From contig OZ231126.1 in the NCBI GenBank assembly GCA_965153355.1, positions 1,984,001 through 2,048,000 on the forward strand: 64,000 nucleotides of DNA, given 5' to 3'. Made by a program: the position numbers and the translations under genes. Origin of the DNA: Flaccisagitta enflata (Eukaryota). Position 1 is the stretch's first letter, and each line of letters begins with the position of its first letter. The notes beneath the pieces are model-generated. The model worked only from the letters and a program-made list of their open reading frames with translations, was not told where the DNA came from and did no database searches. Of this stretch, positions 5,393 through 64,000 are shown piece by piece.

Positions 5393-6700
5393 CAGTGCGA
5401 TGCATAAAAAAAGATACAAATTTTCTATTAAAAAATTCTATGCTCAAAAATTGCTTAAAAAACTTTTTTCCATGAGGAATCAAAAGAGTTGGAAGAAATG
5501 AAGTGATTAGCACCAATCTCAGACATTTTGGTCAATTTGACTAAATTTTATCATAAATTGAAAAATTACGTGTTACCAATTGATGCAAGATCTCCAAATA
5601 ACTCTTAATTTTGTCTTCAATTGTATCTGGATTCTTTGAATTGACATTGAACTAATGAAAATCCATGACATTTGGAGAGCCCTACAAAATAGCTTCCATT
5701 TGAGTCGTATCTGGCATCTTTAGCTCAATTCGTTTAAGAGTTATGTTAGTTTAAGTAAAACATTACTTTTTTGGTAGCAGCAAAAAAAAGGTCATAATTT
5801 ACGTAGATGTTTTTGATACCTTATCTTTGTTTTATCATAGAATTCAAACAAATTGATCAAACTCTTTGGACTTAGTGGCAATGTTTCCGTTTTTTGAAGC
5901 TCTTTCAAATGCTCACAAGAAAACCAAAAAAAAAAAAAAAATTATTTTAAGTCCCTTAAGGAGAAGGTATGGTATACAAATAGGCATATTAGATGACTCC
6001 TAAAGGCACCCCGAATCTTGCCATGGTCATGGGAGTCCCACCCCAATCTCCTACTTCAAGATAAATGTAAGAAGTCATACAAAGAGTGCGCCACCGTCTG
6101 ATTTGAATACATGAAAAGGAAGCCCTTTTCCATTGCTTTCTAACCATACATTCAAATGTCTCGGTGGCGCACCTTTAGTTGTACTTATTTCACCCAAAAA
6201 TTTTTTATGACATACTTTTGTTGTCTGACAATAGCTCTATCGAATCCTTGATCCACTCATTATGTAGGGCCAGTGTAACATTCCCATCAGTATATCGTAG
6301 TGTCTTGACTCTAATACGTCATCAATTTGTGTTTCTGAGTAAAAAATTAGACAAAAAATCTCTGCGAAGAATCATTTCCTTCTCTCAAAAGTCGTTCGTA
6401 CAAGACTGCAACCACATATTTTTCTTTCTCTCCAGTTTTTCTTTTTTTCTGCTTGCGTTTATTTCGAAGACTCGACCTCTTTTACTAAATAACTAATAAC
6501 TAAACTCCAAACAATGGCGATTACGATGATAACGGAGAAGTCGACGGTGCAGAGGAAGCTGACAATGCAACGACGATCGCGATGTTGCGGTGAGAACGAC
6601 GATGACGATGGCAATGACGGTGATGATGATGACGAAGACGACGACGAAAAGATAAAGACGAAGAAAACGGTGACGTTAATGACAACAATAACAACAACCC

Positions 6701-6743
<43 letters not shown>

Positions 6744-7227
6744 CAACAGCAACAACAACAGCAGCAACAGCGACAACAGCGATAGCGACAACAACAGCAA
6801 CAACAACAGCAACAACAGCGACAAGCGACAAGCAACAGCAGCGTCAGCAACAAGCGTCAGCGTCAGCAACAGCGTCAACAACCGTCAACAACAATGTCAA
6901 CAACAATGTCAACAACAATGTCAACAACAACGTCAGCAGCAATGTCAGCAACAGCGTCAACAGCAACGACTGACGGCGGCGACCGCGACGGCGGCGAAGC
7001 GACGACGCGGCGACAGCAGCGGCGACAACGGCGACCAGCGGCGGCGACAGCGGCGGCGGCGGCGAGCGGCAGCGGCGACGACGGCGACGCGGCGGCAACG
7101 GCGAGCAGCGGCAACGCGCACGCGAGCCGCGACAGCAGCGGCCGGCACAGCGACAACGAGCGACAGCAGCGACGACAGCGACAAGCAGCAGACAGCGACA
7201 AGCCGGCGACAACAGCGACAACGACAG

Positions 7228-7258
<31 letters not shown>

Positions 7259-7269
7259 AACAACGACGA

Positions 7270-7300
<31 letters not shown>

Positions 7301-7500
7301 AGACAACGACAACAGCAACAACAAACAACAAACAACAAACAACAGACATAAAAAAAACAAAGAAAAAACAACAAACACAACAAAAACAGACAACAACCAA
7401 AACAAACAAACACCAAACAACAACAGATAAAGACATCAACAACAACAAACAAATAACAGACAACAACAGATAAAGACATCAACAACAACAAACAAATAAC

Positions 7501-7587
<87 letters not shown>

Positions 7588-7867
7588 CGTCAACAACAAC
7601 AACATCAACAAACAAACAACAGACAACGACAACAACAGTAAAAAGAACAATAACAAAAGCGCCAACAGTATTTTACTGTTTTACAACTTTTGTTTCAGCG
7701 CAACCATGTTCTTCAACGCGTCTGAATATTCACACTTTTCTCTTCCAGGTAACATAATATCCGATTGGCGTCAACTGACTGCTGCATGGAGATGATTGCG
7801 GTTACCATCAAGTCTATCGTGGCCATGGTGGCGCTGAAACTCCAAATCTTCTTACAGAATACAACAA

Positions 7868-10202: not shown

Positions 10203-10325
10203 CACATCCGAATACATACCAACCGTCACGTCAAAGGATCGGCGAAAAATGTCAATGGATAATATCAAGTGGTACAGCTGGAATAAAACGACTTCATAGA
10301 TGCCACTTTGGAGACACTAGGGGTG
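10203..10325 (+). CDS. Probable internal exon; (A)HPNTYQPSRQRIGEKCQWIISSGTAGIKRLHRCHFGDTRG (faintly resembles the start of a CUB domain)
   Basis: Pyrimidine tract + ag at 10201-10202, donor g/gtacgt at 10326, 123 nt symmetric phase 1, in frame with both neighbours. Confidence 0.55.
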
Positions 10326-10425
10326 GTACGTAAAGACTATCGGTTCATCGGTTCATCGATCTCTAGGTCCGTCGAACATGCTCACGCTTTTCTGCACTTT
10401 GCTCAATTATATTTACTTCTCCCTG

Positions 10426-10546
<121 letters not shown>

Positions 10547-10554
10547 TTCTGTAG

Positions 10555-11000
10555 GTATGGTTCGTATGGTGAATGGGAAGATAGTACTCAAGCCACCACC
10601 AAGTAGCTCGACCTCTTGTTTCAACGGACGTCTCGAAGCGCGCACACCAGTCAGCACTTATCCTAAAGGAACTATAATTATAACAAACAAATGGGGGCAA
10701 GTCTGTGACGATGGGTGGGATGGACAACATGCAAGGGAGTTTCGGGCGTCAGGAGTTGCTTGCCGTGATCTAGGTTTTACACAGCCGATTAATAAAGGAT
10801 CCTACTTTGTGGCCTCCAAAATCACCCCAAGCCCCGTTCGTGGGGACGAATGGGTTCTAGATGACCTAGTTTGCGATCTAGAATCGTATAAAAGCGTTTT
10901 TCAGTGCAAGTTTACTGGTTATGAAAATTGTGGTGATCATGAACAACTCGGGATTGATTGCTCACAAAATCGAAATCCTACTAGTGGGGTTCTTCTATGA
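10555..11000 (+). CDS. Terminal exon encoding a scavenger receptor cysteine-rich (SRCR) domain
   Basis: Motifs [47 protein letters not shown] match the SRCR consensus; acceptor ttttctgtag after a (CT)n tract; stop TGA at 10998-11000. Confidence 0.88.
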
Positions 11001-27546: not shown

Positions 27547-28531
27547 AAACAAACCGACAGACAATGTTGTTTCGTTGTTGGCAGTTGGTATGCAGTAGTA
27601 TGGGTTGTTTTTTGTCTGATTCCTCCCCCGCAGATCCTTACCCAATATAGTCTATATAAATAGTACTGAGATTGGGGGGATCTGGCTAAGAATGGAATTA
27701 GCAAGGAGAGTAGGCAGTTGTCATTGTGAGGTAGTGTTAGGGAGAGAGGCAGACAGACAGAAAAAAATTGTTACGTTGTTAACAGTTGGTATGCAGTAGT
27801 AGGAGCTGTTTTTCGTCTGACTCATCCCCAACAGATCCTTACCCAGCGTAGTCTATGTAAATAGTACTGTAGCTGGGGGGATCTGGCTAAGAATGTAACT
27901 AGCAAGGAGATAAGGCAGTTGTCATTGTGCCTAGGCGTCGATTTTTAAATAGGATGAGTCACAGTTGATTTTGAGTAGGAGATGGAGGAAGATTTGGTGG
28001 GCGCTGTGCAGGCAGGATGACATCTAGAGGGCTGCGGTGGGACCGATAGATGACTTTTTGATCCTTTGATGTACTTGCGCGAACTAGCTGGATCACTTCT
28101 GCCTCTCTTTCACTGATCAATTTGCCCAAAATCGGGTTCCCAACTTTCATCTTGGTCACCATTTTTGAGCTCAGCTGCAGCAGACGGACCTTAATCATGG
28201 GCAGACAGGCGCTTTCATGCAATATCTTCAGGCTGACATATCTGGGCAGACGGAGGCAGGTACGGATGGCCCGATTTTGAATTTTCTGCATTATGTCAAG
28301 TGTACTATCTGGGGAGTGGATAAAACAGACAGACCCATATTCAAAGATTGACCTGATATACACTTTGTAAAGTCGGATGAGGATCTTTGGATCGGTCCCA
28401 CCCCATGCTAGTATTCTAAGGATATTCAGTCTTTTTTCTGCTCTTTGAGATAAAGCTTGAATATGATCCATGAAATTGAGTGATGAATTAATCTCAACAC
28501 CAAGAAATTTTGCAGATGTATGACTCTCCCG
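26815..28531 (-). mobile_element. 5'-truncated non-LTR retrotransposon (I/jockey-like), RT C-terminal part at 28520-27959 plus 3' UTR
   Basis: SAKFLGVEINSSLNF...LNILRILAWGG...LYKVYIRSIFEYGS motifs; AATAAA and short (TTC)n tail near 26820-26840; candidate 7-bp TSD gaatctt at 26808-26814 and 28532-28538. Confidence 0.8.
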
Positions 28532-28577
28532 GAATCTTAATGGATGATTGAATGAATAGACCCACCAACATGTGCCC

Positions 28578-29992
28578 TTGACGGTATGTTTTCCCCCTCA
28601 TGTGCTCAAAACCCATGTACCCGATCGTTTTAGATTATCTTTATAATATTACTACCTAGAACTAAAGAGATTTGGGATTTTTGATCCATTTTAGGGACCG
28701 CGAGTTCCATTTATTTATCACCACTCCAAGGTGGTTGTGGTGAAAGTGTTGAAATTTGGTCACTTTGGGCTAAAAATCGGGCCACTTTGGTTTGGAAATT
28801 TGACCCAAAATCTTTGAGATTATGAAACTAGAGCTCAAGAGCTAACCAGTGGTGCAATCCGCATGTTGCTATCATTTTTTGTTAAGATTTAAGAGCTTTT
28901 CAAAGATGGAAGGGTATGAGGGTTATTTTACCAATTGAATTTGGTGGTCAATTTTGACATTTTTTACAATTTTTGATATATTTCCGCTTTGGATGGACAA
29001 ATCTGGATGAAATTGGTGACCAAATTGAAGAATTTTTGATGCTCTAACTGAATCTGGTAAAATTTTGGATCGATATGACCCTCAAAATTTTTGGGAGACT
29101 CTACAAGCAGGTGCTAAAAAGTGATTTTTTTCGCCATTTTGGCTACTTTGGTCAAAAAATTTGGGCACTTCTGAGATAGAAAATGACAAAAAATCAGTGG
29201 GTAAATAAAACTACTGTTCAAGATCTAACCAATGGTGCAATCGGCATGTCAATAGGTTAAAACATATAGATTTGGCAAAGCTTCAAAGATCAGTGGGTAT
29301 GATGAAATGACATTTTTTGGTCATTATGAGCCTAAAAGCTCTGCCAAATCTATATGCTTCAACATATCGACATGCCGATTGCACCATTTGTTAGATCTTG
29401 AACAGTAGTTTAATTTGCCCACTGATTTTTTGTCATTTTCTATCTTGGAAGTGCCCAAATTCTTTGACCAAAGTAGCCAAAATGGTGAAAAAAATCACTT
29501 TTTAGCACCTGCTTCTAGAGTCTCCCAAAAATTTTGAGGGTCATATTGATCAAAAATTTTACCAGATTCAGTTAGAGCATCAAAAACTCTTCAATTTGGT
29601 CACCAATTTCATCCAGATTATCTATCCAAAGTGAGATATAACAAAAAATGAAAATGTCAAAATTGACCAAACCTGGTAAAATACCTCATCTCCATCTTTG
29701 AAAGCTCTCAAATCTTAATAAAACATGGCACATGTGATTGCACCACTGGTTAACTCTTGAGCTCTAGTTTCATAATCTCAAAGATTTGGGTCAAATACCA
29801 ACTAAAATGGTAATTTTGAGCCCAGTGACCAATTTCAGTTTTCACAACCACCTGAGTATGATAAATGAAGGACTATATCCCAAAATGGATCAAACCAAAT
29901 CTCTTTAGTTCTAGGTAGTAATATTATAAAAGTAATAAAAAACGATCAGGTACAGGGGTTTTGAGCACATGAGGGGGAAAACATACTGTCAA
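28578..29992. mobile_element. 1.4-kb fold-back palindrome
   Basis: ttgacggtatgttttccccctcatgtgctcaaaacc / ggttttgagcacatgagggggaaaacatactgtcaa; ~50-nt loop near 29310. Confidence 0.8.
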
Positions 29993-30098: not shown

Positions 30099-30784
30099 AA
30101 ACAAAGCCAAGTTATGGCCAATAAGTGCGCCTCGCTTGATTAAGAATTTGTGAATTAACGTTTTGAATGCATGAATGAATGAATGAATGAATGAAAGAAT
30201 GAATGAATGAATGAATAAATGAATGAATGAATGAATGAATGAATGAATGAAAAACTGAATGAAAATGAGTGTGGTAAGTAGGGATGTGGAAGCGATTGAC
30301 CGCTTCCATTTTGGAGGATGGGATAGCTACTAGTATTTGAACTGCAAAATGGAAGCGGAAGCGCAAGCGCAAGCGGTGGAAGCGGCACTAAAATCCACCG
30401 TTTCCACATCCCTAGTGGTAAGGCATGAGAGGTGATAGGAATGAAGAATAACGACAGAATTGACCGTTTTGAGCGTTTTGAACGTTTGCGTTACCGACCG
30501 ACAGCCAGACAGACCAACCGACAGAGTGAGACGGACATGACCTCTTATAGAAATGCGAGGACGCACTTAACAAGTACCCCGGGGGTACAACGATGCGTCC
30601 ACATGCTGCTTAGCTTGTTAAGAATGATGCAATATTGCATCAATTATGTAGAATGATGCAATGACCTATCTTTTTGTGTGATTTCCTTGTGTTTTTATCA
30701 TTCTCAACTCAATCACCACGGACCGACGGACGGACCGACGGACGGACAAAGCCTCTTATAGAGATGCGTGGACGCATCTAAAAA
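30099..30784 (-). mobile_element. Two adjacent HINEs (taagtgcg and tagatgcg subTIR families); relatives at 49177-49638 and 59963-60179
   Basis: aacaaagccaag...gcgaggacgcacttaa and aacaagtacccc...gatgcgtggacgcatctaaaaa. Confidence 0.7.
30279..30414. mobile_element. 136-bp hAT MITE
   Basis: TIR tagggatgtggaa/ttccacatcccta, 8-bp TSD gtggtaag. Confidence 0.85.
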
Positions 30785-30898
30785 TGAGCGTTTTCTTTAG
30801 CACAAAAACTCGCGCTCTTGACATACTTTTTTCAAAATAGATTTCTCCAAATCGATAATAGATACAAGGAAAGCAACTCTACTGCAAGTTCAATTTGG

Positions 30899-33097: not shown

Positions 33098-33745
33098 AAG
33101 AATGTTACTCCTTAGAGAAAAAAAATTGCTATAGCTGACAATGATAAGCGGTCAAAATTTTGGGATTCATGAGATTATAAAAATAATTACTGATTTTATA
33201 CTTTGTATTGCATCAAGGGATTTTCTAAGCATTTTAAGATATTTTTTGTAATAATATATGATCAGTTTCCTTGAAAAAGATTTGACAAGAAATCTTCAAT
33301 TTACCTGAAAAAAAAAAAACATTGTTACTCAAAGATGAAACTTACAAGGAACTAGATGCAAGTTTCTGTTTTTGTTTTGTTTTTTTCAAGGGTGTATAAA
33401 ACTAAGTCGCTTTCGACCCCCCCCCCCTGCCTTTGATTTTTGTCCCTGCAACACATTATGCTATGTTTTAGAATCTTTAATTTTTTTTTTTTACAAAACG
33501 AGGTTTAAAAAATGTTTTTATCATTTGGTACTGCCAAAAGTTTTATTTTCCTCAAATTTTCATCTTTTCTCTTTTTTCCCGAAAAAAGTGGCTTAAAAAG
33601 TCACGTAGCACGCGACTAAGATTCTTCTACGAAAAGTAGTCACTGGTCAGTATGATATGTTTATCTAGGAATTTCATCAGAATTGTGAATCTGTAAGTCT
33701 TATTCTATTTCATAAAGTTGGATTTTAACCGATTATGTAGCCTTA

Positions 33746-33839
33746 CTGGAGGATGTTCACGATCATTGCTTAAGCATTGCTTAGCAAGTCTTGAGCATTG
33801 CTAAGCAATGCTTAAGTAATGATCGTGAACATCCTTCAG
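33746..33839. repeat. 94-bp near-perfect hairpin (mini-MITE?) downstream of lectin gene 1
   Basis: ctggaggatgttcacgatcattgcttaagcattgcttagca / tgctaagcaatgcttaagtaatgatcgtgaacatccttcag; absent from the paralog near 55040. Confidence 0.75.
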
Positions 33840-34144
33840 CTGTCTGTAATTCTAACAACATTTTGTTCATCATTTGAGGGTTGTCACAGTCAACAGAGTG
33901 AGTTATCAACCTAGTGTTTTTTCAACTGACAAGGGGCTGGGCGAAACCCTTGCAGTTTTTGGTCAAAAATTTGAAATCGATTCACAATCTCACTAATTTT
34001 CATTTAGATTTTTCATTCTTTTATGAGTTTTTTCTTGTCGATATATTCTTGAGCAAGATGGTATGTTGTTGCTTGTCGATATACCTATGGATATAAGCTA
34101 GATAGTATGTGTGACGCTTTCACAGTTCTGAATAGTTGCTATAA

Positions 34145-34449
34145 TCATTTACATGCTATCCAGTTAATTCCTATTTCATGCGGTACATTGTCGCGGCTCC
34201 ACACCTTAACGTAAACAATTCCATGGGTTGTATTCTGTGCGTCGGCACCGATAAACCAGCTCCAGCTTGGTTTTGAAGAATCATTGGTTGTGTCATAAAA
34301 GGAGAGAGAACCGAGGGCGGCACTGACGGTGGGTCTGCGTGGGAAAGTTATTCCAAAGGGAAATACTTCCTCGATAGAGTCCGTCGTGTTTAAGGCAGGA
34401 TTTTCGGCGACGTCGAATCTTATAAAACTTGACACACATGTTTTTCCAG
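34145..34449 (-). CDS. Terminal exon, probable H-type lectin domain (lectin gene copy 1)
   Basis: Acceptor ttttttgtttcag, phase 1; FGITFPRRPTVSAAL...D...AQNTT...VKVWS...INWIACK* fits the H_lectin pattern (F..PP.V..L..D...A..T...V.W...WIA); paralog at 58628. Confidence 0.75.
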
Positions 34450-34836: not shown

Positions 34837-34948
34837 CTAGAGGCAAATCAATCAAAACCATCTTCTACTAGTTTCGCACACGATGATATATCCAGACATC
34901 TTCATTTAAAAGCAAAATAACGGTTTGACACACATTCAAGCACTGACG

Positions 34949-35124
<176 letters not shown>

Positions 35125-35171
35125 CTTTCTAGTTCCTGCTCAAAAAGAGGTTATTTTACTAATTTAGTTAC

Positions 35172-35864: not shown

Positions 35865-35944
<80 letters not shown>

Positions 35945-35946
35945 TC

Positions 35947-35993
<47 letters not shown>

Positions 35994-36392
35994 CAAAAAT
36001 GCAAAAAACAATTCAAAAATTCATAACGCCAAAATTAACAATTGTAGAGACTTCTGGTTGGCGCTATTTGAAAGAGAAAAATCAACTTTTTCTTAGCTGT
36101 GAATATAAAAAAATGTATACCCCCAGCCCCAAAACCGCTCAACTTTCAAAATTTGTCAAAAGCCGAAAAAAAAAACTTTAATTCTCCTCTACGTTTCAAA
36201 AAGTCGAATTACGTAATTCGACTTTTTTCCAATAATTGGAATTCCCCACTTCTCAAGGCAAAGGATGAAAAGTTGAAAACGTGATTATAACGTTATGCAA
36301 TTAGGGGCAAAACAGGGCTTTTAGAAACGGAAGATGACAGAAATTTGTAAAAGGAAAAATGGTGGAGGCATTTAAATGAGTAACCCCATGAT

Positions 36393-53145: not shown

Positions 53146-55942
53146 CGGACCCCAAATTAATCCTTTCAGACCCCAATTCAGGCCTCTAAGACTCCAAATC
53201 AGGCCTTTCAAACCCCAAATCAGGCCAGTCAGACCCTAATTCAGGCCTCTAAGATCCCAAATCAGGCCTTTTAGACCCAAAATTAAACCTTTCAGACCAA
53301 AATCAGGCCATTCGTGAACAGAAAATGGTGACCTAAGGGCCTTCAGATGGAGGAATTTCATTCATGAATAATGCATTATGTATCAAAATTGCATTTTTAA
53401 AAAAATTTTCACTTTTTACAAGTACTGTACTGTACTCGGTCTTAAAGTACTAAGTAGATGTGGCAAATTTTGGAGCTCCCCTATAGGGCATCGGGTACCA
53501 CTGACCATATAACGCTTTCGCGACTATTTCTTTTTTAGCTGCGTCCTCGCATCTCTATATTAGGCTGTGTCCGTTGGTAGGTCGGTTGGTAGGTTTGTTG
53601 GTTGGTGAATTATTCATTAAAGACATCAAAATCGAGCATTTTTTCAACAGAAAAATGGTTCTACCCCAGTAAAAGAAGCATACATCAAGTAATTCATTCA
53701 TTCAATCATTCATTCATTCACAAATGACATTCATTCATAAGAAAACTTTCATTAATAAAAAAACGTTCATTCAAAGAGGATGCATCGTTGGCCTACTTGG
53801 CCTTGTTTTTATTCAATATGCAATCACCAAAAACATGTTGTCCAACTTTATGTGATTAGAACTATTCAAAAATGAAAAACAGATATTGTACTTTATTTTT
53901 GATGAATCCCGAATTTTGGCTTTTCTTGCTGTGACAACCATACCGACCACTCTCTAGCTCATGAAGATATCGACAAAAGGGAGATTGGTAGATTTAACAA
54001 CATAGAATTGATAACAAATTTTTGGAATATATCAAATACTTTGTATTGCATCAAGGAATTCTCCAGGCATTTTAACTTATTCTTTAGTAAGAATGTATGA
54101 TCACTCCCTCCTTGAAAAAAATTTGACAAGAAATCTTCAATTTACCTGAAAAAAAAAACATTGTTACTCATACCATTTTTCAGGGGTGTATATTAGGGTG
54201 GTCATGAAATAGGGTCAAATTTCAAAAAAAGATATACTCTAGTTTTTTGCAACATTGTTAATCATACCATTTTTCAGGGGTGTATATTAGGGTGGTCATG
54301 AAATAGGGTCAAATTTCAAAAAAAGATATACTCTAGTTTTTTGCATAAATGTACCAAAAAAGAAGGTTTTCCCACAAGCAGAGGTCTGAGTTTGAAGATT
54401 AAACCATGTCGGCAAAACAATGGGCTTCCTATGGCAAAAAAAAAAGTCCCCACAGTAAGCCTATGGTTTTGCCGACAAGGTTTTTTGTTTGATTACACAC
54501 CCCAACTTGTGAGAAATCCCTCTTTTATTGGATATTTGTGCCTAAGTATATCAATATATGAAATTTGACCAATTTCCCGACCACCCTAGTGTATATAACT
54601 AAGTCGCTTTTGATTCCCTTTTGATTGGGCCCCCCCCCCCCCCCGCCTTTGATTTTCGTCTTTCCGACACATCGCGTTATGTTTTAGAATCTTTAATTTT
54701 TCTCTCTTTAAAACAATAAAACAGAGCAAAAAAGGTTTAAACAATGTTTTTATCATTTGGTACTGCCATAAGTTTGATTTTCCCCAAATTTTCTTTTTTT
54801 CTCTTTTTTCTTCCTCATCTCAACTCAATAACATACGGGCCTGCCATTTTTCAATCAGGGCATCATTCTAATTTTGCTTGTCCAAAAAAAGTGGCTTAAA
54901 AAGTCATGTAGCACGCGACTAAGATTTTTCTATGAAAAGTAGTCACTAGTCAGTGTGACATGTTAAACTGGGAAAAAATTGTGAATCTGTAAGTCATAAT
55001 CTATTTCATATAGTTGGATTTTAACCGATTATGTAGCTTTACAGCTGGCTGTAATTCAACTATCTTGGAAATAGAAATCCTTACTTGTGGAGGATGAGTT
55101 CATTTATTGACATAAATATGAATGCATATCAATTGAAAATCCATTAACAATTAGGGTGAGCCCCTTTTGATTGAACCACAGCCGTTATTTATCGGGGAAG
55201 CATTTTGTAGAGCGTCTTGAGGAACTCTGGAGTGATGGCGCTCCAGACCATTCTTGCCATTTTCTTGATTCATTTGTTTTGCTACGTTTGACTTAAAGCT
55301 CCAAATAGACTCCACAAATCATAAAAAAATAGGTGACATAAATGAAACCCTTTGAATTTGCAAGCAGTCTACGCAAACCGCATCTGTCTAGCTCAACTCA
55401 TCCAGAAGGTATCTAAAAAAGAGCGAAGTGAAATTGTTTTAAGATTATGTAGAAATGGCGATAGCTAAATCGAAAGATTTCATTCAAAGTTGAAAAACTT
55501 TTGAAGGCATCGCGTCGAGTTAGAAAGATGCAGTTTGCGTAGATCGCTTGCTAATTTGAAGGGCTTTGATTCTGTACCGATTTTTTAAAGATCGGGCGCA
55601 TTTATTCAGCGATATTTGTTAAAACGGGAGTAGAGATTTCTTTTTCCAAGATAGTAACAACCAGTTGTTGTACTCAACATTTTGATTATCACATGTTGGT
55701 TGGATCAAAGTCAACGGAGTGAGTTATCAACCTAGTGTTTTCTTAACTGACAAGGAGGATGCTATTTACAGCTGGGCGGAACCCTTGAAGCTAATGGTCT
55801 AAAATTTGAAATAGATTCAGAATCTCACTAATTTTCATTAAGAGTTCTCATTCTTTTATGAGTTTTTTCTTGTCGATATATTCTTGAGAAAGATGGTGTG
55901 TTTTTGCTTGTCGATATACCTATGGCTATTAGCTAGATAGTA

Positions 55943-58588
55943 CAGTAGATGTCGTCTAGACTTGGAAGTACGGGGGATTTCATTAAGAGAAGACAAATAA
56001 ACTTAATAGACCAATATTTGGGATATAAACTAATAAAAGGATGCTCTATTGTTTATGAGTGTTGGTTGCCATGGAAACACATTTCCATGTATACACGCTA
56101 AAGCATCAATATTTTGAGAAATTTTTTGAGAAAACAATGTTTAATATAGAATTTGCTAAAACTTTCCCACAAAATGTTCTGTCAGAGTGTTGCTCATTTG
56201 GCGGTTGCACAATGGTTGAATTGAAATCAGCGATTTTGGAGCAAAAAATGCAAGGATTCTCATGAAGTTTTCTCTTTCATATCTCTTACAATGAGGAGGG
56301 GAGAACAAAAATGGAGTTAAATTCCGTTAGAGGGAGTTAAAATAAGGGGGTAGGGAAAAAAAAGTAAAAAAAGATTTATTTTCCCCTTGTTATTGCAAGA
56401 AAAAGTGACAATGCCCCCATCATTCCTCATCAAAAAAGAATTTACACCATTGCGTAGAGGAGAAACAGACTATTCTAAATATATAAGCATATGTGCATAA
56501 ACTTGCCGGTTTGGGATTAAAAGCAGATGAAAAATCATTCTGGCAGCCATCACCTTCATCGACAATGTCCAGTTGAATCCCGATCTAGTCATCAACAGAA
56601 ATGGAAAAATGAGGAAGAGGAAGAGGATCAACAATTGGCAAGCTGAGGATGATGAAAAAAGGAAATCTTTAGATATAAAGCAGAGCACCCTGAATATTTA
56701 GAGGAGAGTCAGTGGCGTTATGCCATGATGCTCTCTTTTTATTAAGAAGTCTGGGGTTCAAGCCTCACAAAGAAGCTTTTTTTTGAAAGTGAATCAGGGT
56801 TTAAATGTAAGATAACTGTTATGCTTAACTCATTTAACCCATGGTTAGCCTGATAGGTTTATCTCAGATACCACAATTTAACAAAATAGAAAAGAATTCT
56901 CACAAGCTCATGAAAAAATAAAACTCAATGGTTTGCCTTCTTTGGGCAGCGGCCCCAAAGGGGCCGATGTCCTATGCTTTCACATATGGAGACATTTTTC
57001 TTTCTCCTTCTCCTCCTGCTTCTCTTATGTCTCCCCCTATCAAGACCCAAATTTCAGCATGGAGGCTTATACAGGGTGTACCAACTCAGTTGTAACATAA
57101 AGAATCGATGTATCTCTGCTTCTAAAAAAGGTATAATGATTCTGAAAAAAGTTCTAAAGAGCTTTTGAAAACCGATTTTTGCTTGATAGGAGAAAAATAA
57201 TGGGAAGGTATAAACAGCAGAGGAAAAAAGGCTTGGAAGTATATGCATTTTTGCTATAATTTTGCTATTTTCTATTGATTTCCAATATCAATTTCTCTTT
57301 GTTGGACTTTTATTTCTAAAATTTTTGACAAACATGTCAAGTTTGACTTTAAAAAAAACATATTTTATGTAATTAAAGAGAGTTCACAGAAAAACTCAGA
57401 TTTTTTTAAGTAGAATACTGTGATTTTTGCCAAAATCATGCTTATGAAAATCGAGGTTTTTTTAAAAACATGGTTTTGAAGGAAAGAAATGCAAAAACTT
57501 CACTATTTTGAAGATGTTTGTTATTGGGGCCAAAAACTAAAGCTAAAATCTTTGATTTAAGACCAATCTGAGGTCTGTAGCTCAATTTGTTTAGAAATGA
57601 GAGCCTTTTAAAGAAACAGTATCCATGGGCAACGACGGCCAAATTTGTATTATGAGAAATAGCTGCTTCACTTTAGGTTGTGAATGTGTAAGTTTTTTTA
57701 CAGGATTGATCTATTTCCTTTGCATGAGTAAAAATCGTTTTTTAAGAGCTTTTTGGAACTTTTTTCAGAATAAGATTATCTTCTCTAGAAGCTGAGATAC
57801 ATCGATTCTTTATGTTACAACTGAGTTGGTACACCCTGTATCCCAGCCTTGAGGCCCAAATCCCAGCCCCAAAGCTCAATTCCCAGGCTTGAGGCCCAAG
57901 ACCTAGCTTCAAGGCTCAAGGTTAAAGACTCAAATCAAAACCTTGAATTTAAATCCCAGCCAAGAAGTCCAAGAAGTCCTGATGAAATGCTAGATAGAGA
58001 AAAAAAATCTTTGAGGGGTTTGAACCCCTACCTCTGAATAAAGCCCAACAGTCGTACCACTGAACCAAATCACAATCTTTCATTCCAGTAATTTTTTTTC
58101 ATCATGCTCTTAAGTATTAGCAGAAGCCTTTCCTAAGTTGTTCTCATGTTTTTCATTACAACCTCTTGCAATCATTGCAATCTGATTAGAGTGCCCTCCT
58201 CTGCCATATACATGCATAACAGAAATTCAGAAGGTATATTCTCAACAGGGACTCCAATCAACCACTGTGGGTTGTTAGGGAGCATCACATGTCTATCACA
58301 CATAGTTAGGCTCCCTAGCAACAGCAAATCGAGAAATATTCTTACAGAACATACTGTGGGAAAGTTGTAGCAAATTTTATCGCAAACAATGTTCCCTCAA
58401 AAAATCTTCTCAAAATATTGATACTTTAGCCTGAATACATAGAAATATGTTTCCATGGGAACCAACACCCATGGGCAATAAAGCATCGTTTTAATAATCT
58501 ATATTCCAAATATCAGTCCCTTAATTAAATATATTTGTTTTCCTGTAATGAATTCCCCTGTATTTCCAAGTCTACACGACAACTACTG
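55943..58588. mobile_element. pogo/Tc1-like element inserted ~40 nt downstream of the lectin 2 stop codon
   Basis: TIR cagtagatgtcgtctagacttggaa / ttccaagtctacacgacaactactg; empty site gatagtatgtgtgacgc in copy 1 at ~34101. Confidence 0.8.
57072..57838. mobile_element. Tc1/mariner MITE nested in a HINE nested in the 55943 element
   Basis: Perfect TIR cagggtgtaccaactcagttgtaacataaagaatcgatgtatctc, TA TSD. Confidence 0.85.
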
Positions 58589-58627
58589 TTTGTCTGACGC
58601 TTTCATAGTTCTGAAATGTGGCTATAT

Positions 58628-58947
58628 TCATTTACATGCTATCCATGTAATCCACATGTAATCCGGTACATTGTCGCGGGACCAAACCTTAACGCCAATT
58701 TCTCCATGGGTTGTATTGAACGCACCAGTTCCAATTAACCAGCTCCAGCTTGGTTTTGAAGAATCAGATTTTGTATCAAGAAAGTCGAAAGCTTTGAGAG
58801 CGGCAATAATGGAAGGTCTGTGTGGGAAAGTAATTCCAAAGGAAATATCTATCCGGAAATAGTCAATCGGGGGCATTGTACTGGAGTCTTTAAGTTTTGC
58901 TGCAATTTCGAGTTGTTCATCACCCGTCACACATGATGTTTTTCCGG
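58628..58947 (-). CDS. Terminal exon, probable H-type lectin domain (lectin gene copy 2)
   Basis: Acceptor ttgctttcag at the same position and phase as copy 1; 47/70 aa identical to copy 1 from FGITF to WIACK*. Confidence 0.75.
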
Positions 58948-59662
58948 CTGAAAGCAATGAAGAGAACATACATGTTTATTTGTTAAATTTTGAATTTGTA
59001 AATATGATCAAAGTTTGCACGATCACAATGGCCAACATGAGATCTGAGTGAAAGTTCGATTAGCAAACTCGTATAGTGTTACTGCCAGCCAGCCAACCGT
59101 CTTGGATCAAGAAATAGTTAGTGAATCGAAGGAGAAGATTCCTTTGCGAAGGATGAAATGCTGTTCCCAGCGAAGAGTTAGGAGTGATGGACTCACATAC
59201 ATTCATGACTACCAGTAGGTGGCCGGCCAGGGTAAAAATGACCTATAGGTCAATGACGTATGAAAAATGACGGTTTGTTGTAGTAATCAGGTAACCAGGT
59301 AACCAGGAATTTTTAATCAGGTAGAATCATCTCCAATCAGTCCCATGTATATTGTTACCATCGGTAAGAGTATCACTGTCACAGTAACACTTAATTAAAC
59401 CACGAAAAGCATTTTCCTTGTTGGTCCAGTAAGATGAAATTTTACTGAAGTGTCTAGATACCTTTGGACTATCATAATCAAAATTTCATACTGCTATACT
59501 TGGTTGACTATCAGTCTTGAGGTACTTTTTTAAAAGTATAAATCTAACTGTTGCTGATGTAGCCCGATCCATAGCCCAAAGTACAACAGAACAACAAACT
59601 GTGACGTCAAGAGTTAGCGCTGGCTAATAGAAAATCATCAAAAATTCTTTTCTTCTACCCAC

Positions 59663-59788
59663 CTGCCACGTAGCAGTATCCCTGACCATAAGCCGGTACA
59701 ATACAACACGCTTCATCTCCAAAGCAGTCGGCATCCGTTTCACACGAATTACTGTCTCGGATTTGTTTACGCGGGGACGAACAAACTC
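59663..59788 (-). CDS. WAP/four-disulfide-core-like exon with 6 Cys: (G)VCSSPRKQIRDSNSCETDADCFGDEACCIVPAYGQGYCYVA
   Basis: Acceptor ttttcttgcttttaag, donor cag/gtgggt, 126 nt symmetric phase 1; C..D.DC.G...CC core is characteristic of WAP domains. Confidence 0.68.
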
Positions 59789-61677
59789 CTTAAAAGCAAG
59801 AAAAGTTTTCTTAGAGACGTATGAATTGAGTTGGGGGGGGGGGGGGAATGTCTTAAATGCTTTGTAAAAGGGGGGGGGGATTTGGTAGTGGCAAAAAGAG
59901 AAATAAGTAAATTAGATTTGATCCTTAGAACCTTTGATAACTACCAGGGCACTGTGCTTTTAAAACAAGTACCCCGGGGGTACAACGATGCGTCCACATG
60001 CGGCTTAGCTTGTTAAGAATGATGCAATATTGCATCAACCTTGTAGAATGATGCAATAATCTGAGATATTTCCAAGATTCTATGCATTTTCATCATTCTC
60101 AACTCGATCACCACGGACCAACCAACCAACTGACGGACGGACAAAGCCTCTTATAGAGATGCGTGGACGCATCTAAAAATTCTTAGTGGAAAGTCTTATT
60201 GGGAAAAAAATCGAAAAACGTTTTTCGATTTTTTGAGTTTCGCTTAGGAATTAATTTTTTCCATTTTCGCTTGAGATGTTTTGAGGAAGTTGGGTCACGA
60301 CTAGGCTCGCCCGAGGCTGGGGTTGAAATTGGTACAGGGTGAAAGAGGGCACTTTTTTACACCAGTCGTGGCATGGGGGATAGTCTGGGATAGACCGCCA
60401 GACAGAGGAAGTCTAGGCGACGATATATCGCTGAATTAGTCTGGAAATGAAACTTTCTTTATATTTCCACGAATTCAAAGGTCTCATTTGGCCAAAACAA
60501 ACGATCCCTTTTTGCTTCCGGCTCTGAAGCCTTCGCGATCAATGAATTCTGAATTAAATTCATTCTCTTTGAACTAAAAACCTCGTCCTGACGTCCGCTC
60601 CTGACCGGCTTTTTAGCTAGAAATCAGAGATTTCATACATATCCTACTAGCTAGAAATTAGCTCCGGATAGGATTTATTATGACTTGGTGACCCGCGGTG
60701 GTAAAACCTACCTACGTACTGACCACCTACCTAGACTCAGTCTGTACATACATACATACATACAGACAAGAGAGGGGGAGACAGACCCCCTCTCGAAAAC
60801 CCTAGCCCATTTATCTTGTCACGTAAAACGTTCCTTCGCCTCGAAAACAGAAAGCCTCAAGTTCATAAATTCAAGTTCGGCGTTCGCTCAAGAAAAAAAA
60901 ACACAAATCAGAACGAAAACTGATGAAAGACAAATGTTCGAACGATGATGACTAACGAAATGAACGTACGTACGTACAATTACACAGACATGAGTACTCA
61001 CTAAGACTTTATGTCCGTTCGACGGTCAGGGTGTCACTGTAAAGTGGAAAAATGAGCGAGCATGATAAACAAACGATGCATATTAGAATAAGCTGTCCGT
61101 ATGATAGAGGAGAGACGGACAGACACTTAGCCGAAAGTGACGGACGGACCGAACATCGGTCCTACGCACGCACCGTTGACCATTTAAGCCTTCTAAGAAA
61201 TTCGGAAGGAAAGGCCCGGGCGCAAAAACGTACTTCGAACCCTAAAACATTCGAATTCGAGACAAAGAAATGAAGAGGAAGGGAGAAAATAGGAGGAGGG
61301 GGGAGGCTGAGTGCGCTTTTCCCGGGTCCCGGGCATTGAAATCGGCGCATTCACTCTCTCTCTCAGCCTCAGACGACGATCTCTTCCTCAAGATAAAACT
61401 TTGTCCGTCTTGTGCGTATTACGATGATTAAAATCACAAAAAAAAACTATGACGCTTTTATAGATTATATTTCATAGTCAATCATCGTGATACGCAAAAA
61501 TAAGTTATGATCATGTTAGCTAAACTATTACATTATAAGAACGCTTATACACACATTTTATATGATATAAAAATTCTAAGAGAAAGTTTTCTTGACATAA
61601 AATGACGTTCTTATAAGGTAAAGTGCGGCCATATGAAGTGCTCAAGTAAATGCACACGCGAAAAGAAAATGCAGAAA

Positions 61678-63976
61678 CCCGCGAAGCGGAGAATTGAATG
61701 TCATTTGACATTTCTTAAACCTTTTTTTCTCTTTCTTTCAACCCGCTAAGCGGAGTATTCGGTTTTCCCGGAGGGGAAATAATTATTTTGTGTCGGTTTC
61801 CATGAAGGAAATAATTAGCATTTTCCACAAAAACAATAAGCATGCACACGCAATTACACAGAGCACTACTAGAAATAAGCCCGCTCAGCGGAGACACATA
61901 TTCACACAAACACGCACAAAAGCAAACTTTGTCGCACTCAATAAATGGAAATACTTTTCTGTTACCCGCGATGCGGAGGTCAACTATTACAAACAATGCA
62001 CTCAATTCCACTTTTGCTTTTCTCGCTTATTTAACCTTGATTCCCGCGAAGCGGAGAAAAACATACGATGTGATTCTGATTTCCGAATGATGCTAGATTT
62101 TTTTTCCTTTCACTCATTGCCTATTTAATTACTATTATTGAATGATACCCGATCCCGCGCAGCGGAGAAAATTGGCATATGGCAAAAAATGATAATAGTG
62201 ATGAATGAAATAGCCATGAATTAAAACCCGCACAGCGGAGAAAAATTGAAAAATAATCAGAATTTTAATTTTTATTCTTTTTTTTGTTTCTCGAATAAAA
62301 ATAAGATAGATTCATTCAATCTAACCAGTGATGTGACTCAAATATTCATTAAAATCAAACAAATGAAATAGCCTAACAAAATGAATTATGCATATCATAA
62401 ATGCCAAATCCATAATTTTAGAATATTTTATTTTAATAACATTATTCAAGCTAAAATAAGACAAGATTTTGTATATCAAAAATCCTGCAAAATACTGCAT
62501 ATTTAGCTGATGCCTACCCTTGTTTAAATGTCTAGACGGATGCCTAATTATTATTTCTGTTTTCATACCCGCTCGGCGGAGGTAGAATTATTGATTCTGT
62601 TTTCATACCCGCTCGGCGGAGGTAGAATTATTGATTCTGTTTTCATACCCGCTCGGCGGAGGAAAATGCATTTTTGATTCTGTTTTCATACCCGCCCAGC
62701 GGAGAAAAATGCATATTGTTTACTTCGGAAAATGTCGGATTAAGTTAGATATAACCTTTCCCACAAAGTGGAGGCATTAATAGGCACCTTACCCACAAGG
62801 TGGAGGCATTAATAGGTACCCTTCCCACAAGGTGGAGAACTTAATAGTAACTATTCCCACAAGGTGGAGACATTAATATTTATTTAGCAACTGCCCATTA
62901 TTGTACCCGCTATAGCGGAGGATTAAAACCATTAAAGCATGGGCGGATGCCCTAAACATTGCCCGCTAAGCGGAGGAAATTAGCTACTGGTAGCTTCGGC
63001 AGTATGCGCAAAAATTCCCCTAAGAAAGGGAGAGGTTCAATACCTTATGTTGACTAGGCTGAGGCCTAAGAATAGCCCGCTAGGCGGAGATAAAATACAT
63101 ATCCTTAGCTTCGGCAGAATGCGCAAATTTTTTGCTATGCTATAAAAAAAAAAAAAAAAAAAAAACTTTGCAACAATGTTAGGATCAATTAAAAATAATA
63201 GCGCATTATTAAAAATGATATGCATAATTCATCTTACCATAAACAGTATCATAAATTCTGAATAATATTACATAAACCCGTTGAACGGAGAAAACATAAT
63301 TGTGAGATTCAATTTCCTTTCTTAAGCCAAGAGCACCCAAGCTCACTCATGATTGAAGTTTTTTATTTTTAAAGAAAATCCTTAGTCATCAGAAGATACA
63401 GAAATGAAATCATAGAATAGCTACCAGCAAAATATCATTAAATTGTAATCAATACTAAAATCCCCGTAACGGATAAATGATTAATTATGAAAAATATTCA
63501 ATACTGGGCTAACTAATGGTTATTCAGTATGAATTGACTAAATCCCGCGAAGCGGAGAGTAAATGTTATGCCCATTACTATCTTTGACAGTATAGGAAAT
63601 TATTTTAATAACTCAAAATAACCATTAGTTGGCAGCTAGTAGAAAATTTTTTAAATGCTCAAACCCCAACAGGGAAGATATTGATACCCGCTAAGCGGAG
63701 GTAAAATCCATGATACACGTAGCATAAATTTAATATCAACACCCGCAAAGCGGAGAAATAATTTATGAGCATGAATCATGATTTTGATACTAATACCCGC
63801 GAAGCGGAGAAATATTCATGATGCATGAAACATGATACTTAATATTGATACCCGCGAAGCGGAGAGAAGATCATGATGCACGTAGCATAATACTTGATAC
63901 TGAAACCCGCAGAGCGGAGAGAAAAGAAATTAGTAATGCATAAAATGATACTTAATGCTAATACCCGCAAGCGGAG
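61678..63976 (+). repeat. Array of ~27 co-oriented CCCGC-N3-GCGGAG mini-palindromes, runs off the window end
   Basis: Copies at 61678, 61742, 61880, 61965, 62043, 62154, 62227, 62568, 62608, 62648, 62691, 62760, 62792, 62824, 62856, 62906, 62962, 63076, 63277, 63463, 63544, 63687, 63742, 63796, 63851, 63906, 63964. Confidence 0.9.
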
Positions 63977-64000
63977 ATAAATTCATGATACTTAATACTG

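Follow-up and report, generated by a model that had tools for sequence, protein, structure and literature searches.

We analyzed a 64,000-nucleotide stretch of the Flaccisagitta enflata genome (assembly GCA_965153355.1, contig OZ231126.1, positions 1,984,001 to 2,048,000 of the forward strand; hereafter the window, by whose own numbering all positions are given) and focused on gene B, the name that we gave to a putative minus-strand gene whose last two coding exons would occupy positions 58628-59788. Our favored reading, which we hold tentatively, is that gene B encodes a secreted chimera in which a WAP-derived module with three disulfides is joined to a trimerizing H-type lectin. This reading builds on the anatomy of the two exons, on the likeness of their products to two known domains, on a local duplication of the lectin exon, and on a predicted lectin trimer.

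The upstream exon, delimited by its sequence, splice sites, and translation, spans positions 59788-59663 (minus strand, 126 nucleotides, with phase-1 junctions on either side) and contributes 41 complete codons, with cysteines at residues 2, 14, 20, 27, 28, and 38. We refer to it as the WAP-like exon. Its acceptor AG lies at 59790-59789 behind a polypyrimidine tract with pyrimidines at 13 of 14 positions, and its donor (CAG/GTGGGT, GT at 59662-59661) scores 6 out of 7. The reading frame meets a TAA directly before the acceptor and a TAG three codons past the donor, hence the limits of the exon are tight. The downstream, terminal exon (58947-58628, minus strand) encodes a divergent H-type-lectin-like domain. 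It begins at 58947, is preceded by ttcattgctttcag (a strong acceptor, phase 1), and comprises 105 codons plus a split alanine codon, ending in a TGA at 58630-58628. The putative intron between the two exons, as read from the sequence, is 715 nucleotides long (59662-58948, minus strand, phase 1), with GT at 59662-59661 and AG at 58949-58948; its removal would join the exons in frame through the split codon G/CC, which encodes alanine.

The minus strand of 58948-64000 contains 143 open AG..GT segments of 45-400 nucleotides with phase 1 at both ends, six of which pass simple splice filters. Four of these six are variants of the WAP-like exon, and the segment 59788-59663 has the best splice score of all 143. 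A preliminary description of this locus had proposed a symmetric phase-1 exon with six cysteines, lying 715 nucleotides upstream of the lectin exon and splicing to it in frame. On rereading the sequence, the coordinates, phase, and junction were all correct, and the translation gives exactly six cysteines. An intervening exon, which the same description had named as grounds for rejecting the join, was not found: inside the 715-nucleotide intron there is no other phase-1/phase-1 candidate that passes the splice filters.

Judged by its sequence, the product of the upstream exon looks WAP-like and not like a full member of the WAP family. The best Pfam match of the exon peptide is WAP (PF00095, gathering cut-off 20.8 bits), with residues 2-28 aligned to profile positions 5-30 of 41; at 19.3 bits (E = 0.0014) this match is below the cut-off. 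The stop-to-stop open reading frame (ORF) of 44 codons scores 21.0 bits (E = 0.0004), and the extra first glycine of this ORF comes from the last base of the intron, where the spliced product would have glycine or arginine. The C-x5-C-x5-CC spacing in the exon is that of WAP cysteines 3, 4, and 5/6, and the core C-x2-D-x2-C-x5-CC is kept. Of the six cysteines, the first corresponds in position to Cys1 of the domain and the last to Cys8. Those missing would be Cys2 and Cys7, partners in one disulfide of WAP domains, in agreement with the loss of this pair that had been proposed earlier. A WAP-core signature of PROSITE, C-x-{C}-[DN]-x2-C-x5-C-C, has a single match in the six-frame translation of the window (59703-59744, minus strand) and none in 200 local shuffles. 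Similarly, among the 83 cysteine-rich ORFs of the window (four or more cysteines within a 41-residue span), the WAP-like ORF alone matches a cysteine-rich Pfam family at E ≤ 0.05; three others have any Pfam match, in each case to unrelated or low-complexity families.

A single-sequence AF2 model of the module has a predicted local distance difference test score (pLDDT) of 74 and contains a hairpin (residues 25-30/35-40). The WAP protein omwaprin (3ngg_B) aligns with this model over residues 2-41, with a Z score of 2.2 and a root-mean-square deviation (rmsd) of 2.7 for 33 aligned residues. The loop at the canonical inhibitory position is basic (R, K, R). The WAP-type core claimed in the preliminary description is therefore upheld by the spacing, the signature, and the best Pfam family. 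The Pfam scores lie on both sides of the cut-off, WAP is tied with knottins in the fold search, and the cysteine count falls short, since full WAP domains have eight cysteines in four disulfides. Because the exon has six cysteines instead of eight, we named the module WAP-like or WAP-derived and did not file it as a full member. A search of PDB sequences with the cysteine exon returned nothing but a Notch EGF module at E = 0.7. A degenerate DNA pattern built on nine of its residues had a single match, out of frame on a bacterial contig of high GC content, that we attribute to chance.

The downstream exon encodes a domain that is like a divergent H-type lectin. H_lectin (PF09458) is the sole Pfam match for all three members of the family, namely gene B (12.7 bits, E = 0.14), a paralog in the neighboring gene A (17.3 bits, E = 0.0053), and P0003 (11.7 bits, E = 0.3), a protein of 93 amino acids that is encoded on a 1168-bp contig and is 63% identical to the gene B lectin. 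These matches, all below the gathering cut-off of 24 bits, run from profile position 2 or 4 to 66 of 67, and that of gene B covers positions 2-66. Structure searches were made with an AF2 model that is weak (pLDDT 53, three-sequence alignment). With this weak model, Foldseek placed the coral lectin SLL-2 first among 350,542 chains (E = 0.12, probability 0.82, TM-scores 0.46/0.50) and entries of the Helix pomatia agglutinin (HPA) type at ranks 10, 25, and 46 (TM-scores for HPA 0.51/0.53). In VIA, which works independently of Foldseek and was run against 48,161 chains, ranks 1 and 2 went to the discoidin I H-lectin domain and to HPA, both with a low Z of 4.6 (rmsd 3.9 over 91 aligned residues and 3.6 over 86, respectively), and SLL-2 ranked 12th. 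The H-type lectin of the preliminary description thus stands as the sole full-length Pfam match and among the top fold matches, but with a family score below the cut-off and a model of low confidence. A PDB sequence search with the lectin profile gave no match, and a profile search of metagenome, genome, and viral contigs gave no related locus. Two repetitive bacterial proteins from the profile search of proteins were taken as spurious.

In a three-copy prediction, the gene B lectin domain reached a homotrimer score of 0.71, against 0.00 for the best control; the mark for this score, which 21 of 30 solved homomers but 0 of 23 single chains attained, was calibrated on two copies, not three. The runs have at least 73% of their contacts in common, with a partner pLDDT of at least 66. 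The predicted interface comprises residues 2-9, 44-53, 68-74, 82-84, and 100-105, and includes both cysteines of the pair (residues 5 and 104) that flanks the domain. The lectin frame is intact over its 105 codons, and the blocks common to the three family members are invariant. An N-T-T sequon at residues 77-79 is likewise invariant in all three, which would fit a secreted glycoprotein.

Gene A, the name that we use for a second minus-strand lectin gene, ends in a lectin exon ~24 kb from that of gene B. This terminal exon (34449-34145, minus strand) is the sole paralog of the gene B lectin exon in the window (tblastn E = 9.6e-29, 54% protein identity). Reading the sequence further upstream on the same strand, together with a signal-peptide scan, gave a signal-peptide exon (38176-38056), two coiled-coil-like, heptad-rich exons (37211-37098 and 35288-35172), and a Gly-rich exon (34836-34771). 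The resulting putative model, drawn from the genomic letters, has five exons, all introns in phase 1, and 240 codons that encode a signal peptide, a coiled coil, a Gly linker, and the lectin, in this order. Since the lectin frame of gene A has no in-frame ATG, it must be spliced to upstream exons, and its position behind four phase-1 exons indicates that in this family the lectin is encoded by a terminal exon joined to others by splicing. After removal of the signal peptide, the gene A product would have exactly two cysteines, both encoded in the lectin exon, which leaves the six cysteines of the WAP-like exon to pair among themselves. We also considered a knottin that borrows the first cysteine of the lectin exon as its sixth, and rejected it because gene A, which has no cysteine exon, keeps both this first cysteine and the C-terminal one.

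The similarity between the two genes extends beyond their lectin exons. Five colinear blastn blocks of 78-88% identity link 33198-34365 to 54036-55942 plus 58588-58847, such that the 3' flank of gene B (54036-55942, minus strand) is colinear with that of gene A (33198-34107). Upstream of the lectin exon, the DNA comparison of the two genes found no similarity, and no relatives of the N-terminal exons of gene A were found near gene B. The simplest history is an old local duplication of the terminal exon and flank of gene A, which gave rise to the lectin exon and 3' flank of gene B. Given that the introns are in phase 1 in both genes, the duplicated lectin exon could splice in frame behind the WAP-like exon, and exon shuffling behind a local duplication is the likely origin of gene B. 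The lectin exon pair (58588-58847 versus 34105-34365) is 78% identical in DNA, with a synonymous divergence (dS) of ~0.41, whereas the 3' flanks are 84-88% identical. An exon that is less alike than its flank is unusual; it could stem from diversifying selection on the exon, from one copy being in decay, or from gene conversion in the flank.

Several observations weigh against a chimeric gene B. Four RNA runs were mapped on 57000-62500, and none has reads on either exon or on the 59663/58947 joint, which is no evidence either way: the run search gave small shares only (0.06), and only ~6% of the poly-A run was read, its reads lying on repeats and being mostly 90-95% alike. The junction predicted in the preliminary description is therefore compatible in frame, but was not seen in four runs with zero depth on both exons. 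RNA coverage in the mapped region falls on repeats (57736-57919, 58288-58655, and 59944-60311), and one run has a depth of 2.53, its only depth in the span of gene B, in an intron bin (59392-59575). Two scans of 59789-64000, which sought an ATG together with a hydrophobic core and a donor in phase 1, found no convincing start or signal-peptide exon. The best candidate, inside repeats that carry a hairpin motif, was unconvincing and was set aside; the region upstream of the WAP-like exon is occupied by repeats and an array of this motif. Downstream, a 2.6-kb insertion (55943-58587) splits the lectin exon from its 3' flank ~40 nucleotides past the stop codon. For the two lectin exons, the ratio of nonsynonymous to synonymous divergence (dN/dS) amounts to 0.86 in total, 0.63 in the core, and ~1.5 in the N-terminal 30 codons, whose alignment is uncertain; with constraint this weak, decay of one copy is conceivable. 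Relatives are also scarce. Protein searches found no protein with a WAP plus H-lectin architecture, a search of longer proteins found no relative of either the cysteine exon or the lectin exon, and P0003 was the only lectin relative both in a search of proteins of near length and in a profile search of 1.84 billion representatives. The sub-threshold H_lectin scores and the weak lectin model count on the same side, as does the tie of the cysteine module with knottins in the fold search, and the trimer prediction may reflect the model's memory of solved H-lectin trimers.

Much of this evidence would suit a lectin exon that is a partial duplicate not joined to the WAP-like exon, which would itself be an orphan or belong to another gene; we regard this as possible but rather doubtful. 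The silence of both exons in the RNA runs, the missing 5' exon in 59789-64000, the dN/dS, the insertion directly behind the stop codon, and the restriction of the similarity with gene A to the lectin exon and 3' flank all speak for it. Such an exon might be a silent relic, might be spliced beyond the window with the cysteine exon skipped, or might be translated alone from an in-frame ATG at 58969, which lies within the polypyrimidine tract of the lectin exon. However, the peptide from this ATG has no real hydrophobic core, the lectin exon of the paralog is not translatable alone, the gene B frame has stayed open with its common blocks invariant, and the WAP-like exon is the sole good phase-compatible exon nearby. 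A different doubt concerns the cysteine exon, which might be real and spliced yet adopt another small disulfide fold, knottin-like or Dickkopf/colipase-like, that mimics the WAP spacing. Against 48,161 chains, VIA-align gave six chains at Z ≥ 2: the knottins EETI-II (2.7) and Magi4 (2.5) at the top, omwaprin (2.2), Hc3a (2.1), and two more. The two knottins and omwaprin lie within one Z unit. In Foldseek, which found no significant match, omwaprin (rank 33) and SLPI (rank 47) came after Dkk4, follistatin, spider toxins, and knottins. The count of six cysteines and the exon-only Pfam score point the same way. Nevertheless, the cysteine order is C..C..C..CC..C and not the C..C..CC..C..C of knottins, the knottin alignments omit residues 1-8 or 1-10 and hence the first cysteine, and WAP is both the best Pfam match and an exact match to the signature, all of which make a non-WAP fold unlikely. 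Least probable of all, and in our view very unlikely, is that the cysteine-rich frame is no exon and stands open by chance within repeat-rich intergenic DNA. It is short, has no homolog in any search, and is without RNA reads, and other ORFs of this microsatellite-rich window likewise reach six or more cysteines. Yet it is the one ORF among the cysteine-rich set with a match to such a family, its signature does not recur in shuffled sequence, it has the best splice context among all candidates together with the right phase, and its model contains a hairpin and has a pLDDT of 74.

Returning to the chimera, we infer its splicing, secretion, 5' end, and function from the features described above. 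The first of the two exons would encode a reduced, three-disulfide WAP-derived module without cysteines 2 and 7, and the second a divergent H-type-lectin domain with a predicted trimeric assembly; splicing of the duplicated lectin exon in frame behind the WAP-like exon would make gene B an exon-shuffled chimera. Gal/GalNAc binding is the norm for the H-type lectin family. If the lectin domains of gene B trimerize and bind glycans, the trimer might hold three WAP-like heads on glycan-bearing surfaces, and the product might serve in defense or in the control of proteases. The protease-binding loop of canonical WAP inhibitors is braced by the Cys2-Cys7 bond. Because this loop-anchoring disulfide is absent and the loop is basic, we favor, by a small margin, a membrane-active or binding function without inhibition over classic serine-protease inhibition. 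That gene B is expressed as a trimeric lectin with three reduced WAP modules, and so represents a new class of glycan-targeted innate effector, is a rather doubtful possibility. Diversifying selection on the recognition domain would, under such an effector role, fit the faster divergence of the lectin exon than of its own flank.

A WAP-like module joined to an H-type lectin is plausible as a new combination of known parts. The preliminary description had presented this architecture as not described before, and the literature and protein searches made here agree with it as far as they go: in the passages retrieved from the literature, the combination was not found, and the two domains occur in different proteins. 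Should the splice be real, gene B would present a combination not found in the literature or among the proteins searched, and would illustrate clearly how phase-1 exon shuffling builds an immune-type effector from two known modules. Under the same condition, the module would add another, independent example of a WAP variant with six cysteines to the one on record. Since both modules and the shuffling mechanism are familiar, no long-standing question is opened.

The surroundings of the two lectin genes are largely repetitive. The window is eukaryotic and AT-rich (GC 0.32-0.46), with many microsatellites and interspersed repeats, and the two lectin-type genes are its credible minus-strand coding features. 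A Pfam search of the 243 non-low-complexity ORFs of at least 55 amino acids returned one ordinary domain, SRCR, in an open frame on the plus strand (10287-10997, E = 6.7e-9, 36.4 bits, above the cut-off), which indicates a gene-poor locus; this frame probably belongs, as a single exon, to a further gene of secreted or immune type. The remaining Pfam matches were low-complexity or stray and sub-threshold (PT repeat in five ORFs, DUF3915 in one, and S_locus_glycop and Chlam_OMP in one). An Rfam scan of the window found no family.

Directly upstream of the WAP-like exon lies the hairpin-motif array, in which CTCCGC-N3-4-GCGGG occurs in 20 exact copies between 61678 and 63919, all on the minus strand (expected number 0.01; a count of 20 was reached in 0 of 100 shuffles). 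Their spacing is irregular, some copies stand in tandem arrays with periods of 40, 32, and 55, and variants seen by eye keep the pairing through two-sided changes (CTCCAC..GTGGG around 62770-62870). As a guess, the array might be a hairpin-bearing satellite of a rolling-circle transposon. Closer to the exon, an interspersed repeat at 59964-60180 is 88% identical to 30569-30785 and adjoins a (GGAC)n-like tract, with repeat sequence also at 60128-60311. The repeat reaches a depth in the thousands in all four RNA runs, with many variant letters and loose ends. Its abundance and variants indicate a multi-copy transcribed element that is not part of gene B. On the other side of gene B, the insertion at 55943-58587 contains, besides a tRNA-like stretch noted by eye near 58010-58090, the repeats 57736-57919 and 58288-58655, on which reads of marine metatranscriptome runs fall. 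Long microsatellites of the types (TG)n and (CA)n/(GA)n sit in introns of gene A (34930-35130 and 35870-36000), and many others are spread over the window, among them a coding-like poly-Q/poly-N tract (6459-7795). A 212-codon frame on the minus strand (27962-28597) resembles, by eye, the C-terminal part of a non-long-terminal-repeat retrotransposon reverse transcriptase and has no Pfam match at E ≤ 0.001.

Set beside known WAP four-disulfide cores (SLPI, elafin, omwaprin, and crustins), the gene B module has the same core spacing, may share the Gly-x-Cys-type start, scores at the Pfam threshold, and aligns with omwaprin over its whole length. It is contained entirely in one symmetrical phase-1 exon, as is usual for WAP genes. 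It differs from these domains in having six cysteines rather than eight and a longer loop after the CC. Crustins are characterized by a signal peptide, a Gly- or Cys-rich region, and a C-terminal WAP domain with eight cysteines, whereas in gene B the WAP-like module has six, lies N-terminal to the lectin, and is preceded by no convincing signal-peptide exon in 59789-64000. The closest parallel for the cysteine count comes from the trichocephalid nematodes Trichuris and Trichinella, in which six-cysteine WAP domains occur (PMC5012510). These domains are, like the gene B module, reduced to exactly six cysteines, but they belong to nematode secreted proteins for which the passage describing them reports no lectin domain (PMC5012510). 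With the H-type lectins HPA, SLL-2, and discoidin I (its C-terminal domain), the gene B lectin shares the domain size and, by prediction, the homotrimer, and has among them its best or near-best fold matches; it differs in its identity of 14-19% to H-type lectins of solved structure, in its Pfam scores below the cut-off, and in the very narrow family to which it belongs. Known H-lectin architectures, in the passage that describes them, include a discoidin domain with an H-lectin, Ig with an H-lectin (gastropod HREPs), and a signal peptide with a single carbohydrate-recognition domain, such that the partner domains named there differ from the WAP-like module of gene B and from the coiled coil of gene A (PMC8878817).

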